Origin: Parcubacteria group bacterium
Lineage (GTDB): Bacteria; Patescibacteriota; Minisyncoccia; Minisyncoccales; UBA10102
Direction of reading: 5' to 3'
Assembly: GCA_016203945.1 (NCBI GenBank)
Contig: JACQLT010000001.1
Location: 6,645-70,644, forward strand
Length of the DNA stretch: 64,000 bases
The notes under the pieces were generated by a model. The model searched no databases, was not told where the DNA came from, and worked only from the letters and a program-made list of their open reading frames with translations. This document shows, piece by piece, positions 4,800 to 39,154 of the stretch. The stretch's first letter is position 1. Every line of letters begins with the position of its first letter. Both the position numbers and the translations under genes were made by a program.

Positions 4800-5918
4800 A
4801 TGACCAAACGCACGAGAACTCTTCTCTTTTTCTCTTTGGTGCTGCTTTTCTCCGTGGTAGCTCCAGCCCTCATTTTGTACTCGTTGGGGTATCGCGTTGA
4901 CTGGCAAGAAGGAAGTATTGCCCAAACAGGAGGCCTTTATATTAAAACGGATCCTGCCAATGCCGTTATTTCTATCAATGGCAAGCAAGAAAAGAAAACT
5001 GATTTCCTCTTCGGCGAGCTTTTTGTGGATAACCTGCTTCCCGGAACCTACGCGGTGAAGATAGAAAAGGAAGGATACAAGCCCTGGCAGAAAAATCTTG
5101 TAGTACAAGCAAAGCAGGTGACGGAGGCGAAAAATATCATGCTATTTCCAGCCCAGACCGCCCTCAAAACACTGTTTGATTCTGTCGAGGAGGTATGGCC
5201 ATCTCCCGACTTGAACCTCCTCCTGCTTCAGCAAACATCCCCCCAAAGAGAAAGACACCTCTTGCTCTGGAACCCCAGAACCAACAAAGAGACCCCTGTA
5301 ATACAGCGGCTCACTTTTACTCAGAAAATCCAAAGCGTTCAATGGGATAAAAACGGAAAGGCCTTCCTTGTCCAGTTCCAGAAAGGAGGAGGCCAACCCC
5401 TGGTATTTAATGAGCAGGGAGAACCCTGCAAGGAATCTTTCTGTCTTGAGAACATTCTCAAGATTCAGCCCACGGACCAAGAAAAATTTCTTTCTGCCGC
5501 AGAAGAATCCTTGCGGCAGATTTTTCCTCAGATACAAGAACGAGCGCTCAGCCCTGATGAAAAGAAAATAGCCCTGACACAGGGTTCTGAGCTCTGGCTC
5601 CTCTACCTTCAGGACGACGAAGGTCAGCCCAAAAGAACTAAAGGAGAGCGGGTATTCTTAAGCAGGTTTGGAGAACAGATACAGAACCTTTCTTGGGTGA
5701 GCAACCACTATCTTCTATTGGGTATTGGCGGCGACGTTCGGATCGTAGAGATTGATGACCGAGATTCTCTGAATACGATCTCTTTGGGCTCATTCCCTGC
5801 CTTGCCTGCCTCGCCGGTAGGCGGGCCAAACCTTCGTATTTTCTGGGACAACAAAGAAAAAGTTATCTACATCCTGGGCAACGGCATCCTCTCGGTTTCA
5901 GAAAAACTCCTCCGATAG
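4800..5918 (+). CDS. membrane-anchored PEGA-domain protein
   Basis: N-terminal TM helix then PEGA-like block (YIKTDPANAVISINGK...LLPGTYAVKIEKEGYKPW); ATG 4800 preferred over GTG 4776 because TGaTATAAT lies 7 nt upstream. Confidence 0.6.
   Translation: MTKRTRTLLFFSLVLLFSVVAPALILYSLGYRVDWQEGSIAQTGGLYIKTDPANAVISINGKQEKKTDFLFGELFVDNLLPGTYAVKIEKEGYKPWQKNLVVQAKQVTEAKNIMLFPAQTALKTLFDSVEEVWPSPDLNLLLLQQTSPQRERHLLLWNPRTNKETPVIQRLTFTQKIQSVQWDKNGKAFLVQFQKGGGQPLVFNEQGEPCKESFCLENILKIQPTDQEKFLSAAEESLRQIFPQIQERALSPDEKKIALTQGSELWLLYLQDDEGQPKRTKGERVFLSRFGEQIQNLSWVSNHYLLLGIGGDVRIVEIDDRDSLNTISLGSFPALPASPVGGPNLRIFWDNKEKVIYILGNGILSVSEKLLR
5796..5825 (+). repeat. hybrid A/B-like 30-nt element in plus-strand PEGA gene
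   Basis: cctgccttgcc (first 11 nt of family B) + tgcctcgccggtaggcggg (family-A-like hairpin); encodes PALPASPVGG. Confidence 0.45.
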
Positions 5919-5930
5919 AACCCAGCTGGT

Positions 5931-5951
5931 GTTAGACATCGGATGTCTAAC
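5931..5951. terminator. bidirectional hairpin between convergent PEGA gene and rpsI
   Basis: gttagacat-cgg-atgtctaac, perfect 9-bp stem, T-rich flank. Confidence 0.55.
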
Positions 5952-5987
5952 ATTCTATATCTTGAGCGACGGTATGCTCTCGGTAAA

Positions 5988-6437
5988 CTACCGTTTCCTC
6001 CACTGCGTGGCGCGGCGGGCTCGGTGAAGTCCGAACTTCTTGCGCTCGCGCATGCGGGGATCTCTCGTTAAGAATCCAAGCGCTCTCAAGCGGCTTCTCA
6101 GCTCGGGGTCTCCTGCGACAAGAGCACGAGCTACGCCGTGACGGATGGCTTCTGCCTGAGCTGGCAATCCCCCGCCCTTCGTCAACACCTTCACCAAGAA
6201 AGAATCTTCTGTGCCGGCTTTTTCCAAAGATTCCTTGGCTACCCGCTGGAGTTCTGAATCCTGAAAGTATTGCTCCACCGGTTTCTCGTTCACCGTGAAT
6301 TTCTGCTCTTTAGTTTTTGAGGATGTAGGCCAAAGACGGACACGCGCCGTTGCGGTCTTTCTCCGTCCTACCCCCTCCAGATATTTGCCTGCCTGCGCAG
6401 GCAGGCCTTCTTTGTTGGTTTCTTTCTGCGCCGCCAT
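5988..6437 (-). CDS. rpsI: 30S ribosomal protein S9
   Basis: C-terminal ...GGGLPAQAEAIRHGVARAL...RKKFGLHRARRATQWRKR; start at MAAQKE (alternative 6452). Confidence 0.9.
   Translation of the reverse strand: MAAQKETNKEGLPAQAGKYLEGVGRRKTATARVRLWPTSSKTKEQKFTVNEKPVEQYFQDSELQRVAKESLEKAGTEDSFLVKVLTKGGGLPAQAEAIRHGVARALVAGDPELRSRLRALGFLTRDPRMRERKKFGLHRARRATQWRKR
6387..6406 (-). repeat. family B short variant (perfect 20-nt palindrome), rpsI copy
   Basis: gcctgcctgcgcaggcaggc; encodes (G)LPAQAG. Confidence 0.7.
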
Positions 6438-11156: not shown

Positions 11157-13034
11157 TTAGGAAGTTTTCAAAAGATGTCCGCGAATTCTCCGCACCCCGG
11201 CCGATACCGCTTCCTGTTTTCCGATGCGGAATCCCCCCACCTCTCTTGTGTGCTGCACGTGAGGGCCTCCGCACAGTTCTCTGGAGAACACGTCTCCTGT
11301 CTCAGGATTTCGGGCGGAATACACTTTCACCACGTCAGGATACTTCTCTCTCGGGGAATACAGAGCTCCCAAAGCTACCGCTTCCTGAAAGGGCATTTCC
11401 TTATATCCCATATCAAGATTCTGGCGAATCGCTTCGTTCACCAAGAACTCTATTTGTCGCACCTCTTCATCCGTCAGCTTCCGATCAAACGTAAAGTCAA
11501 AGCGGGTGCGTTCCGGGGTGATGTCAGAACCTGCCTGATGCACGCTTTCCCCTAATACCTTGCGCAGGGCAGCCTGCAGCAAATGGGTTGCCGTATGCAA
11601 ACGCGTGACAACCTTCAGTTCCTCCTCGTTCGCCGCCTTCAGCTCTCCCGTATCTAGTAAGAGCCCATGACCTCCGAACTTTCGCTCTTTCCCTGCTCTT
11701 GAAATTTCCTGATGTTTTCGAAATTCCTCATCAAATTCTTCCCTATCAATAAAAAGTGCGTGTTCGGCTAACAATTCGTTAATGAGCTCTAGTGGAAATC
11801 CATAACTCTGATATAAATCAAATGCTTCTTTTGGAGATATAGCATTGATGGTATAGGCAGACTTTTTACGAAGGTTTTTCGGAGGCCATCTAACAGCATA
11901 TTTTTTTTTGTTCTTTTCTCTTGATAAAAGCTTCTGAAACTCTGTAAGGCCCTTTTCAAGAGTCTTGCTAAATCTATCTGTCTCTTTCTGTAAAACTTCT
12001 AAAATAACCGACTTTTCTTCTCGTAAATTATTATAGTCAGGAACCTTACCATATATTCGTATGATTTCTTCTGCAGGACTTAAATAAAATTTTGAATCTA
12101 ACCCAGCTCCGATGTACTTATAGTGATTAAGCATGGCTCGCCTTATTAATCTCCGCAAAATATAACCCGCTTCTTTATTTGAGGGTCTTATTCCGTCTCC
12201 GATCAAAAATATACTGGCACGTAGGTGATCGGCAATAACACGGAGCTTTTCTATTGGTTTATCTCCAATAATTTCAATGATTGAACTGAAAATTGACATA
12301 AACAAATCTGTCTCGAATATATTCTTCTTGCCTTGGACAACCATCGCCAGTCTTTCTAACCCCATGCCGGTATCTACTCCCGGCTTCTCTAGCTTCCGCA
12401 ACTTCTTGTCCTTTGAGCAGTAGTACTCGTTGAATACGATGTTCCAGACCTCGGTGTTGTTGATATAGAGCTCGGTAGTGGGACCGCAGGGTCCCTCAGC
12501 TCCTGTGGGCCCCCAGAAGTTGTCCTCTCTCCCCTCCTCTCTGATATCCTTGACGCCAAGCTCACTCCAGAACTTTTTTGACTCCTCATCTCTGGGAACC
12601 TCCTTGTCTCCCCCGAACACGGTCACATACTGAATCTTCAACCCAATTTCTTTCAAGAACTCATGGGCAAGCCGTATCGCCTCCTCCTTGAAGTATCCGC
12701 CAAAAGAGAAGTTTCCAAGCATCTCAAAGAAGGTGAGGTGGGTCTCGTCTCCGACGCTGTCAATGTCTGAGGTGCGGAAGGATTTTTGAATGGATACCGC
12801 GTTCCTGCTTCCCAGGAACTTCCCTCCCAAGGTTTGATGAGGAGAAGACATGGGATCTGCCTCTCCCGTGTAATAGGGCTTAAACTGCTGCATGCCTGCC
12901 GTGGTAAGAAGCACAGAGGCGTCATCTGGAACCAAAGAAGACGAGGGCACAATGGTGTGCTTCCCGCCCGTGGCGGGTCCGCCTTGGGCGGAAAAAAACT
13001 CCAAAAATCTCCTGCGCAACTCCTGCGACTCCAT
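11157..13034 (-). CDS. alaS: alanyl-tRNA synthetase, short form (625 aa, no C-Ala domain)
   Basis: TAGMQQFKP, FEMLGNFSFGGYFK, GMGLERL, editing-domain HTATHLL and CGGPH motifs. Confidence 0.9.
   Translation of the reverse strand: MESQELRRRFLEFFSAQGGPATGGKHTIVPSSSLVPDDASVLLTTAGMQQFKPYYTGEADPMSSPHQTLGGKFLGSRNAVSIQKSFRTSDIDSVGDETHLTFFEMLGNFSFGGYFKEEAIRLAHEFLKEIGLKIQYVTVFGGDKEVPRDEESKKFWSELGVKDIREEGREDNFWGPTGAEGPCGPTTELYINNTEVWNIVFNEYYCSKDKKLRKLEKPGVDTGMGLERLAMVVQGKKNIFETDLFMSIFSSIIEIIGDKPIEKLRVIADHLRASIFLIGDGIRPSNKEAGYILRRLIRRAMLNHYKYIGAGLDSKFYLSPAEEIIRIYGKVPDYNNLREEKSVILEVLQKETDRFSKTLEKGLTEFQKLLSREKNKKKYAVRWPPKNLRKKSAYTINAISPKEAFDLYQSYGFPLELINELLAEHALFIDREEFDEEFRKHQEISRAGKERKFGGHGLLLDTGELKAANEEELKVVTRLHTATHLLQAALRKVLGESVHQAGSDITPERTRFDFTFDRKLTDEEVRQIEFLVNEAIRQNLDMGYKEMPFQEAVALGALYSPREKYPDVVKVYSARNPETGDVFSRELCGGPHVQHTREVGGFRIGKQEAVSAGVRRIRGHLLKTS
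12963..12992 (-). repeat. family A 30-nt in-frame double-hairpin element, alaS copy
   Basis: cccgcccgtggcggg|tccgccttgggcgga; encodes SAQGGPATGG. Confidence 0.8.
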
Positions 13035-37066: not shown

Positions 37067-37140
37067 CGGGGCGTAGTATAATGGTAGTACGCGAGGCTGG
37101 GGGTCTTGCAGCTCGGGTTCGATTCCCGACGCCCCGACCA
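37067..37140 (+). tRNA. tRNA-Pro (anticodon GGG), CCA encoded
   Basis: Hand-folded cloverleaf: acceptor CGGGGCG/CGCCCCG with C1-G72 and A73 (Pro identity), D stem GTAT/GTAC, anticodon arm CGAGG-CTGGGGG-TCTTG with G37, T arm TCGGG-TTCGATT-CCCGA. Confidence 0.85.
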
Positions 37141-37147
37141 AAAACAC

Positions 37148-37774
37148 ATGGATCAAGAACAACCAAGTAAATACGAACAAAAGAAACTCAGGCGCGAAGA
37201 GAAGGAAAAACAAAGAATGCGAGGGCGCGCAAAGCGACGGTGGGGAACATGGCTTATGCTTCTACTTGGAACCGCAGTTATCGCTACGGGAATATTTTTC
37301 TTGATCAACAACAAAGGCAAAAGAGACAATGTGCCAGATCTCTCCCGGGCAATGCCAGATGAAGGCAGTATCCACGTGCCAGAAGGTACGGATGTAACAT
37401 ATCAATCCAATCCTCCAACTTCGGGAAATCATTGGCCCATTCCCCTGTTCCCTAAACTGTATGACGTGGAAAAACCAGATGAAGCAATCATACATAGTTT
37501 GGAGCACGGACGCGTCTGGATTTCCTACAAGCCTTCTATCCCGGAAGAAACAAAACAGGGGCTTACAAAACTCCTTCGAGGACGCTCAGGTGTTATTCTT
37601 ACGCCGCGGCTAGCGAACGATACCGATATTGCCATGGCCGCTTGGGGACGACTGGATACGTTTAATCTTTTTGCGGACGGCGAACTTTCAAGAGACCGAA
37701 TCCTAAACTTTGTGAACCGCTACCTCAACAAGGGCCCCGAATACGTTCCCACGATGGACGGGAAAGAATACTAG
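37148..37774 (+). CDS. DUF3105-domain membrane-anchored protein
   Basis: Lys/Arg-rich N-terminus, TM helix, NPPTSGNH and HSLEHGRVWISY motifs; ATG 8 nt after tRNA CCA. Confidence 0.65.
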   Translation: MDQEQPSKYEQKKLRREEKEKQRMRGRAKRRWGTWLMLLLGTAVIATGIFFLINNKGKRDNVPDLSRAMPDEGSIHVPEGTDVTYQSNPPTSGNHWPIPLFPKLYDVEKPDEAIIHSLEHGRVWISYKPSIPEETKQGLTKLLRGRSGVILTPRLANDTDIAMAAWGRLDTFNLFADGELSRDRILNFVNRYLNKGPEYVPTMDGKEY

Positions 37775-38343
37775 CGCGAACGAGGGACTTTACCAGCAAG
37801 CACCTCGTTTTTTATTTTCTTCCACCACGACTTGTTGTATTTTTTAAGCGAAGCAAGCTCCTTTTTGTAGATCGGCTTGAAGAACTGGTTACCTCCTTTC
37901 ACCTCCTCTGAGCATTTTGCGATCAACGAAAGCCGGTCTGCCAGCTTGACCACCTGGGCCTCAATCACCTTCTGCTCCCCTTCTTCGTTCCATAACGAGA
38001 CAAAGTGGTTAGCGAGTTGGTTGGGAAGCCCGGCAAACACTTTCTTGATCAAACGCTCATTCACCTTGCGGATGGCGCCCATCACGTCGGGAGAATAGTG
38101 CTTGAAGGGTCCCAGGATGTCTCCTGAAAACATTTCTTCCATGTCGTGGACGAGCGCCATCATGACCGCTTTTTCAGAATTAATCTTTACTTTCTTTCTC
38201 TTGAGCAGCTGACAAAACACCGCTGTTGTATACGCGACAAAAAAAGAGTGTTCTGCCACACTCTCCGGAAAATTCTGAGCATACGCGCTGAAACGCACGA
38301 TGTGTGCAAGCGACCTCTTCTGTAGGTGGGTGAACATATTCAT
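37771..38343 (-). CDS. HD-domain phosphohydrolase (YfbR-like 5'-nucleotidase family)
   Basis: ESVAEHS ... ALVHDMEE ... D motifs of HD superfamily. Confidence 0.7.
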   Translation of the reverse strand: MNMFTHLQKRSLAHIVRFSAYAQNFPESVAEHSFFVAYTTAVFCQLLKRKKVKINSEKAVMMALVHDMEEMFSGDILGPFKHYSPDVMGAIRKVNERLIKKVFAGLPNQLANHFVSLWNEEGEQKVIEAQVVKLADRLSLIAKCSEEVKGGNQFFKPIYKKELASLKKYNKSWWKKIKNEVLAGKVPRSR

Positions 38344-38354
38344 AAGAAGGGTTC

Positions 38355-38391
38355 ATAAAATACCCGCGAGAGCCAAGCAGTTGGCTCTCGC
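38355..38391 (-). terminator. strong hairpin ending candidate sRNA, 22 nt before HD gene ATG
   Basis: gcgagagccaa-ctgc-ttggctctcgc (11 bp) then gggtatttta. Confidence 0.5.
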
Positions 38392-38528
38392 CCCCATCTT
38401 CTTCCTATCGAGATTTATTCCAAAGTATCCAGGTGGGTGCCTCAGCCTCCGCCCAAGGGCGAAGAACATATCCGGCTCCCGAAAGAAATGTTTGTAGAAA
38501 AATCACGACAGAGGAAGCAGACAGGGCT
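38355..38528 (-). ncRNA. candidate rod-shaped small RNA or cis-leader (unclassified)
   Basis: Own TTGACC-16-TACAAT promoter, 5' arm 38500-38526 largely complementary to 3' arm 38393-38416, then 11-bp terminator hairpin. Confidence 0.35.
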
Positions 38529-38534
38529 ACTTCC

Positions 38535-38562
38535 ATTGTAGAACGCCCAATGCCTCGGTCAA
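38535..38562 (-). promoter_or_regulatory. promoter of candidate sRNA/leader
   Basis: TTGACC-16-TACAAT starting 5 nt after ndk stop. Confidence 0.5.
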
Positions 38563-38566
38563 GACC

Positions 38567-39154
38567 TCAGAACATCATGTCCTCCTCTGCCCTTTTGTAG
38601 TCGTGTATCTCTTCTGGAGCAAACCAAAACGTAATCTCGTGTTCTGCTTCCTCGGGAGTTTCTGAGGCGTGTAGGATATTGTGGATGGCACGCTTATCCC
38701 TGTTGGCAGCGGTTGCGTCATCCACGGAGAAGTCCCCTCTAATGGTGCCCATCTCAGCTACTGCCGGCATCGTATTCCCTGCGATCTTTCTCATCATATC
38801 CACCGCATGAATGCCCTTGACTACCATTTTTACCAAAGGGCTTGAAGTCATATAGTCAATGAGCCAGGATCGCACCATAATTCCAATTTCTTCTGGTTTA
38901 TCCGTGCCCAGTTCCTGGCTGGCATCCCATCCGTACTTCTTATAGTTTGCAAGAGTTTTCTCTCCAAGGCGCTTAATCCAGGAAGAATCTTTTGGATAGT
39001 GATCGTCAATTTGCGCTTTTGTCGCGGTAAACATCTCCAAAGCAATAATCTTTAATCCCCTTCTTTCCAGACGAGAAATAATCTCGCCGATGAGTCCGCG
39101 CTTTACTCCGTCTGGTTTAACAATGACAACGGTCCTTTCTTCTTTTGGATGCAT
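38567..39154 (-). CDS. ndk: nucleoside diphosphate kinase (long form, 195 aa)
   Basis: VIVKPDGVKRGLIGEIISR..., NILHASE (catalytic His) context. Confidence 0.85.
   Translation of the reverse strand: MHPKEERTVVIVKPDGVKRGLIGEIISRLERRGLKIIALEMFTATKAQIDDHYPKDSSWIKRLGEKTLANYKKYGWDASQELGTDKPEEIGIMVRSWLIDYMTSSPLVKMVVKGIHAVDMMRKIAGNTMPAVAEMGTIRGDFSVDDATAANRDKRAIHNILHASETPEEAEHEITFWFAPEEIHDYKRAEEDMMF

Follow-up and report, generated by a model that had tools for sequence, protein, structure and literature searches.

A conserved rod-shaped small RNA gene downstream of ndk in Parcubacteria with the architecture of 6S RNA

6S RNA, which regulates the housekeeping RNA polymerase on a global scale, has been described in nearly all bacteria (PMC8414754, PMC8876501). 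It is a rod of about 200 nt in which a central bubble lies between a closing and an apical stem, and its fold imitates that of an open promoter. Recognition depends chiefly on two elements, one in the apical arm ('-35-like') and one in the 3' strand of the bubble ('-10-like'). A short product RNA (pRNA) is copied from the 5' bubble strand, which leads to refolding and to the release of the 6S RNA (PMC8876501). A conserved A is found adjacent to the pRNA start, and a GG at positions 4/5 or 5/6 of the pRNA is widely conserved (PMC8414754). Tandem 6S genes have been reported in the Bacillus cereus group (PMC7726162), and Ms1, a 6S-like RNA of Actinobacteria only, binds the core polymerase (PMC9130861). 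[quoted passage not shown]

The RNA described here is encoded between ndk and a YfbR-like HD-domain gene in a 64,000-nt stretch of Parcubacteria DNA, referred to below as the window. Its transcription signals, homologues and secondary structure were analysed computationally and compared with those of 6S RNA.

The gap downstream of ndk and its transcription signals

A preliminary description of the window had drawn attention to a 223-nt gap between ndk and the HD gene in a tightly packed region. This gap was confirmed from the limits of the two ORFs, both of which were recognised by Pfam (Table 1), and the surrounding genes abut or overlap. The promoter proposed in the same description, TTGACC-16-TACAAT on the minus strand, is of the sigma-70 type and was recovered at 38562-38535, starting 4 nt past the ndk stop codon and not 5 nt as had been given. 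The 11-bp hairpin with a U-rich tail was likewise found by pattern scan; both the promoter and the terminator calls are consensus matches. From the promoter spacing, transcription is predicted to start at about 38528, and the primary transcript would end at the terminator near 38357, giving a length of about 172 nt, of which about 140 nt would form the rod.

Table 1. Features of the ndk-HD region of the window (window coordinates)
Feature	Position	Strand	Basis and remarks
ndk ORF	38567-39154	minus	Pfam NDK, 1e-37; stop at 38567
-35 hexamer TTGACC	38557..38562	minus	Pattern scan; putative promoter of the RNA gene itself
-10 hexamer TACAAT	38535..38540	minus	Pattern scan; 16-nt spacer to TTGACC
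6S-like RNA body, 141-nt rod with central bubble	38390..38530	minus	Covariance model matches
Closing stem, 5' strand	38500..38526	minus	MFE fold, covariation; 'downstream duplex' and pRNA template by analogy with 6S RNA
Central bubble, 5' strand UUCUACAAACAUUUCUUUC, 19 nt, no G	38481..38499	minus	Family anatomy
Apical arm, 46 nt	38435..38480	minus	Helix GGGAGCC/GGCACCC, internal loop, 9-bp hairpin (38445-38467) capped by CUUG
Central bubble, 3' strand ACCUGGAUACUUUGGAAU	38417..38434	minus	First bases most conserved; '-10-like' by analogy with 6S RNA
Closing stem, 3' strand	38392..38416	minus	MFE fold, covariation
Intrinsic terminator, 11-bp G+C-rich hairpin (38391-38366) and tail GGGUAUUUUAU	38355..38391	minus	Pattern scan
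YfbR-like HD-domain ORF	37771-38343	minus	PF12917, 3.5e-33; start at 38343

The homologues of the RNA, which are presented below, were examined for the same signals. A strict promoter was defined as a TTGAC-type -35 box and a TAnAAT -10 box separated by 15-19 nt, with at least 9 of 12 positions matching, that ended 0-12 nt before the first position of the covariance model. Seventeen of the 30 homologues had such a promoter in this position, compared with 2.5% of random control positions at the same loci, and several of the remaining 13 had a -10 or an extended -10 box only. The -10 box of the window ends 4 nt ahead of the first model position, a distance shared by 10 of these 17 homologues. 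In most homologues the rod is directly followed by a terminator of unrelated sequence, and in two of them (L001 and L002) a U run lies directly 3' of the closing stem. With a predicted promoter and a predicted terminator of its own, the RNA would be transcribed as a stand-alone gene.

In three relatives (L049, at 5560-5600, L062 and L063), the final codons of ndk (..FGVDE*) contain or overlap TTGACG, the predicted -35 box of the RNA gene. Because of this overlap, ndk and the RNA gene are physically interlocked in several relatives. The HD gene of the window is probably expressed by read-through of the RNA terminator, because only 22 nt separate the end of this terminator from the HD start codon and the pattern scan gave no promoter for HD itself.

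The HD gene, for a dNMP nucleotidase, is beside the RNA, between its terminator and a convergent DUF3105 gene, and a thymidylate kinase gene is about 1.4 kb away. The presence of the YfbR-like HD gene varies among very close relatives, as it is found in the window and missing from L024 and L025. A tRNA-Pro (anticodon GGG; 37067-37140, plus strand) overlaps the start of the mechanically listed DUF3105 ORF (37106), so that the true DUF3105 start codon should be further downstream. The Ndk protein of the window clade has 195 aa and is matched by the Pfam NDK model (135 positions) in two stretches, which suggests an insertion relative to typical Ndk proteins.

Homologues, secondary structure and covariation

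Within the CPR, the relatives of the Ndk protein placed the window among the Parcubacteria/Paceibacteria, with Candidatus Wildermuthbacteria MAGs and groundwater metagenome contigs as the closest. An nhmmer search with the gap sequence detected homologous DNA in 6 of 23 genome loci, at varying distance from ndk and once inverted. Whole-RNA alignments made with MAFFT misaligned the variable closing stem, and RNAalifold then gave a wrong 3' helix. Because MAFFT could not align this stem, a structural covariance model (R1) was built from the single window sequence and a curated structure; models R2 and R3 were built from 12 and 19 matches, and the E-values of all three models are rough, as their calibration was shortened.

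In 61 sources, model R3 recognised 30 members on the expected strand, including MAGs labelled Wildermuthbacteria, Paceibacterota and Parcubacteria group. Further members, from Jorgensenbacteria (L007/L040) and from a Minisyncoccia MAG (L021), were recognised with R2 run with its filters off and by direct reading. At about 30 Parcubacteria loci the RNA is usually 30-120 nt downstream of ndk and on the same strand, and in some loci it is 0.3-3.7 kb from ndk or inverted. The window RNA scored 183/146/136 bits with the covariance models on the minus strand and 30/32/23 bits on the plus strand; because the scores of the reverse strand are far lower (146 vs 32 bits), the transcribed strand is that of the promoter and the terminator. 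Judged by these sequence matches, the RNA is a small RNA gene conserved across Parcubacteria.

Two side observations were made during these searches. In L043, and likewise in L044, two tandem copies of the RNA (5736-5858 and 5907-6051), about 50 nt apart, were located downstream of ndk, an arrangement reminiscent of the tandem 6S genes of the Bacillus cereus group (PMC7726162). The first copy of L043 was weaker (30.6 bits), and its 3' bubble strand does not begin with the otherwise invariant A. In three Falkowbacteria loci (L016, L017 and L053), the 6S-like RNA was absent from the position downstream of ndk; these loci harboured, about 120-290 nt 3' of ndk, a different conserved intergenic stretch, in which a TATAAT box is accompanied by two hairpins and a terminator and which could be another small RNA.

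The gap folded as a long rod followed by the terminator hairpin, with a minimum free energy (MFE) of -83.2 kcal/mol (z = -3.2) that was not reached by any of 200 dinucleotide shuffles. The reverse complement of the gap folded nearly equally well (z = -3.3), so that the folding energy alone does not give the strand. Individual folds of seven homologues likewise supported a rod with a closing stem, a largely unpaired central bubble and an apical stem. This is the rod shape of 6S RNA, and it was found here both in the MFE fold and by covariation.

Covariation was assessed in an alignment of 19 sequences (A8), which was fitted to the model structure and consists of related sequences, so that its numbers lean towards the structure and the shuffle counts are not probabilities: 91.9% of the cells were paired compared with 65.0% in column shuffles, with none of 500 shuffles reaching the observed value, changes on both sides were seen in 37 of 38 pairs, and the covariation score was 0.695 versus 0.229 in the shuffles. 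Sliding the 3' partners by 1-3 columns reduced the pairing to 43-51%. The two helices of the closing stem (helices 1 and 2) were 92-93% paired, with changes on both sides in 22 of 23 pairs, and helices 3 and 4 were 99% and 86% paired, respectively, with all pairs covarying. As a check, the apical arm alone was aligned with MAFFT blind to structure (A10) and the pairs of the window were then imposed on this alignment. Pairing was 78.5%, compared with 63.0% in shuffles, and double changes were present in 15 of 15 pairs; the helix adjacent to the bubble was 97% paired, with GC-to-AU and CG-to-UA swaps.

These results bear on several pairings of the preliminary description, which had itself proposed a covariation check on homologous spacers; the RNA proved to be conserved and to show covariation. 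The complementary arms that it had described, placed here at 38500-38526 and 38392-38416, are paired in the MFE fold and covary in the 19 homologues. The helix GGGAGCC/GGCACCC (38474-38480 / 38435-38441) was the best supported of all, with 99% pairing and compensatory changes. The inner pairings TTC..CAAA/TTTG..GAA were present in the MFE fold of the window but are unpaired in the consensus structure of the family.

The rod of the window has a closing stem of about 23 bp, an apical arm of about 20 bp and bubble strands of 19 nt (5') and 18 nt (3'). Across the 30 members, the length of the RNA was 122-173 nt. The 5' bubble strand was 18-21 nt long in 25 of them (mode 19) and contained few G residues (6.5% of bases), and the 3' bubble strand had 13-21 nt and started with AC(C/U)U in 28. 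The apical arm was 44-51 nt long in 25 members and expanded to 67-89 nt in the other five. Little self-structure was seen when the bubble strands of the relatives were each folded singly, a count that covers pairing within a strand. The 5' strand was without self-structure in 29 of the 30 members, and the 3' strand formed a small hairpin (-1 kcal/mol or better) in at least 13 of 30 relatives. The stems of this hairpin differ between relatives (for example CCUAGAA/UUCUAGG, UUGGC/GCCAA, CUUGGC/GCUAAG), and it is absent from the window clade. Conservation peaked in the helix bordering the loop on its apical side and in the first bases beyond it, namely G51-G53, C94-C98 and U100 (87-100%; C94 at 87%, and C95, C96, A97, C98 and U100 at 97-100%), which correspond to 38480-38478 and 38437-38431 in the window.

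The apical hairpin had also been likened to half of a repeated 'family A' element. This link was rejected, as every other match of the 16-mer concerned in the window had 3 or more mismatches, and one of these weak matches falls in coding sequence. The element meant is probably a pair of adjacent G+C-rich hairpins at 12962-12996 on the plus strand (CCCGCC-CGUG-GCGGG and UCCGCC-UUG-GGCGGA, followed by an A run). These hairpins are not a canonical terminator on either strand, and their likeness to the apical hairpin of the RNA is limited to a GCC-YUUG-GGC tetraloop hairpin.

Resemblance to 6S RNA and competing explanations

Two readings of the gap had been offered in the preliminary description: a rod-like sRNA of about 170 nt, with a 6S-like shape and running from its own promoter to its own terminator, or an aptamer and terminator leader controlling the HD gene. 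The first of these is supported by the conservation and the covariation described above and by the 6S-like architecture and core sequence. By analogy with the known 6S RNAs, the RNA most likely works like 6S RNA, and it is probably a divergent homologue.

When 401 nt around the gap were scanned with Rfam by E-value, the best family was 6S (RF00013), at 38530-38387, with 20.8 bits and E = 0.03, and the alignment was full length (model 1-187). 6S was also the best-scoring family over the RNA, again at full length, in L038 (24.1 bits) and in L007 from Jorgensenbacteria (22.1 bits, E = 0.0084). In the window, L038 and L007, the GGG and CCCAC(C/U)U of the family fall on the GGG and CCCACCU that the Rfam 6S consensus gives in upper case, and the E-value scans of these three gave no RF00013 match on the opposite strand. 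The scores of these three diverged members (21-24 bits) are far below the Rfam gathering threshold for 6S, which is 46.4 bits. No 6S match at E <= 10 was obtained for at least 17 other members, among them L026, L027, L063, L029, L021, L020, L042, L022 and L011, and, in a 41-kb scan, L001-L004, L018 and L019; these scans differed in size and in filter strength, as the stringency of the Rfam filters varies with input size. The Rfam check suggested in the preliminary description thus returned 6S as the best family and at full length, but below the gathering threshold, and matched no riboswitch family. A scan of the whole window at gathering thresholds (64 kb of genome) reported tRNA-Pro only. The other Rfam families listed for the relatives (miRNA, snoRNA and sRNA families) were rejected as noise, as they fall on terminators or A/T-rich hairpins. 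In the reciprocal search, neither R2 with its filters off nor R3 matched E. coli ssrS (L070, 1484-1666), the sole known 6S RNA compared, and the matches listed when the window and its relatives were scanned by E-value included none to other lineage-specific 6S families.

The features expected of the bubble were compared with those of E. coli 6S RNA, for which we take the pRNA start to be U44, followed by A45. The E. coli RNA has a 5' bubble strand of 17 nt and a 7-bp helix followed by ACCUUGA (CAUUC|ACCUUGA), and the corresponding 3' strand of the window has ACCUGGA. The pRNA start of the window RNA is predicted, by this analogy, at C38494, in a conserved YA(A/U)A motif. The Y of this motif is 11-15 nt 5' of helix 3 in 20 of the 30 members, compared with a distance of 14 nt from the upstream helix for U44 in E. 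coli. The predicted product RNA, 5'-GUAGAAAAAUCACG, is A/U-rich and without GG at positions 4/5 or 5/6, and constrained folding in which the template strand was blocked gave no clear release hairpin in the window RNA. The RNA was not filed as a member of RF00013 because of the sub-threshold scores, the lack of a reciprocal match and these misfits of the product RNA.

The main alternative is a Parcubacteria-specific rod sRNA with a function unrelated to that of 6S RNA, for example a sponge or a scaffold for another protein, in which case the likeness to 6S would come down to a generic long hairpin with an internal loop and a short motif shared by chance. This explanation, which we consider unlikely, is favoured by the low Rfam scores, absent for most members, by the failure of the models to match ssrS and by the lack of a predicted pRNA-driven release hairpin. 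However, the conserved bases (G51-G53, C94-C98 and U100) occupy precisely the upstream fork of the bubble and the first part of its 3' strand, where conserved sequence is expected of a 6S RNA, and they spell the 6S consensus GGG/CCCACCU. The 6S matches were on the transcribed strand only, although the reverse complement is an equally good rod, and the lengths of the bubble and the arm are held to promoter-like dimensions.

That the rod is a structured 3'-UTR element of ndk, acting as a stabiliser or processing signal and not as a separate gene, is very improbable. The position of the RNA close downstream of ndk and on the same strand, with no terminator between them at most loci, and the overlap of the -35 box with the last ndk codons in some relatives would be compatible with such an element, but the RNA has a putative promoter of its own at a fixed distance from its 5' end. 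Moreover, it is inverted relative to ndk in L002 and is 2-3.7 kb away from it in L003, L012 and L013.

The second reading of the preliminary description, a cis-acting leader in which the rod would be the aptamer and the hairpin at 38391-38366 the expression platform for the YfbR-like HD gene, was contradicted by synteny and is given very little weight. In terminator-type riboswitch leaders, a structured RNA and then an intrinsic terminator directly precede a gene, and the position of the terminator ahead of the HD start codon, with no separate HD promoter found, would be in line with this. Loci in which HD comes after the RNA are limited to the window, L004, L018 and L019/L061; in L019 no hairpin or U-run terminator is visible between the two. 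In seven other loci (L024, L025, L001, L026, L027, L062 and L063) the RNA is kept but the HD gene is absent, and the convergent DUF3105 gene comes next. Among them are the closest relatives of the window, L024 and L025, in which Ndk is 97% and 93% identical. Because the RNA persists without the HD gene in these loci, a riboswitch or attenuator dedicated to this gene is refuted. In addition, the terminator is conserved neither in sequence nor in position, inspection of the flanks revealed no conserved alternative pairing with the rod, and the conserved bases are in an internal loop of the rod and not in a multi-helix pocket. Unlike terminator-type riboswitch leaders, the RNA has no conserved downstream gene or expression platform. 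It is scarcely credible that the feature is a palindrome or mobile element at the DNA level or a gene for a small protein. An inverted repeat, long and imperfect, does make up the region, and an ORF of 43 aa is listed at 38405-38536, but the element is single copy in the window, has many G-U pairs and shows a strong strand asymmetry of model scores, and the ATG of the ORF coincides in part with the -10 box and is missing from L024 and L025, the closest relatives.

Proposed mode of action and comparison with known systems

Based on the 6S RNAs of E. coli and B. subtilis (PMC8876501), we infer that the 6S-like rod would mimic an open promoter; RNA polymerase binding, product RNA synthesis and a physiological role are all put forward by analogy. 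The apical arm would replace the upstream DNA out to about -35. In place of the -10 element, the primary sigma factor would read CCC-A-C-Y-U, the invariant sequence of the 3' strand at the upstream fork. The 5' bubble strand would be placed in the active site as a template, and binding would sequester the housekeeping holoenzyme. After a rise in NTPs, the polymerase would copy a short product RNA, beginning at the predicted start, from the 5' bubble strand into the closing stem, and its synthesis would release the RNA.

Because the Rfam 6S model stays below threshold on these sequences, standard annotation would omit the gene, and the RNA is probably unannotated in the CPR. What is new here is a shortened family of the 6S type that needs its own model and has a conserved position just downstream of ndk. 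This is useful rather than startling, since 6S RNA is expected in most bacteria. If the assignment is true, ultra-small symbiotic bacteria with heavily reduced genomes keep the 6S regulator, in the form of a natural and near-minimal RNA of about 140 nt, close to what a promoter spans between -35 and +20. For annotation across Parcubacteria, model R3 (19 seed sequences) together with ndk synteny would then be a practical route.

The linkage to ndk is also a lead on the coupling of transcription to nucleotide supply in host-dependent organisms; to our knowledge, CPR organisms are unable to make nucleotides de novo. A more speculative view, to which we attach a rather low probability, is that the RNA is a minimised 6S RNA coupled to ndk, the last NTP-supply step, as a sensor of nucleotide supply, or else a new polymerase- or protein-binding rod that is confined to the CPR and is not a 6S RNA. 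If it were a sensor, the A/U-rich template would make the release of the polymerase unusually dependent on ATP and UTP, and the ndk-6S pair would turn on transcription in the symbiont when the host supplies nucleotides.

The RNA resembles 6S RNA (RF00013) in its rod shape, its unstructured 5' bubble strand, its conserved core at the upstream fork, its predicted organisation as a stand-alone gene and its putative strong housekeeping-type promoter. The 3'-bubble hairpin of many relatives is reminiscent of the type known from B. subtilis 6S-1 (PMC8876501). The rod is about 25% shorter than 6S RNA, at about 140 nt compared with about 185-200 nt (PMC8876501), and the neighbouring gene is ndk, compared with zapA/fau for E. 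coli 6S and rarA/uspA in lactic acid bacteria (PMC8414754). Truncated variants of B. subtilis 6S-1 (78-82 nt) bind the polymerase and template pRNA in vitro, with an affinity about 10-fold lower; a natural 6S RNA of 140 nt is mechanistically plausible, because a bubble with short flanking helices suffices in truncated 6S-1 (PMC8876501). These variants are engineered constructs, whereas the ndk-linked RNA is a natural and conserved gene. The RNA known as 6S-Flavo forms a separate Rfam family. Together with Ms1 (PMC9130861), it provides a precedent for 6S-type RNAs that are missed by the general model and need a model of their own or a search by synteny.
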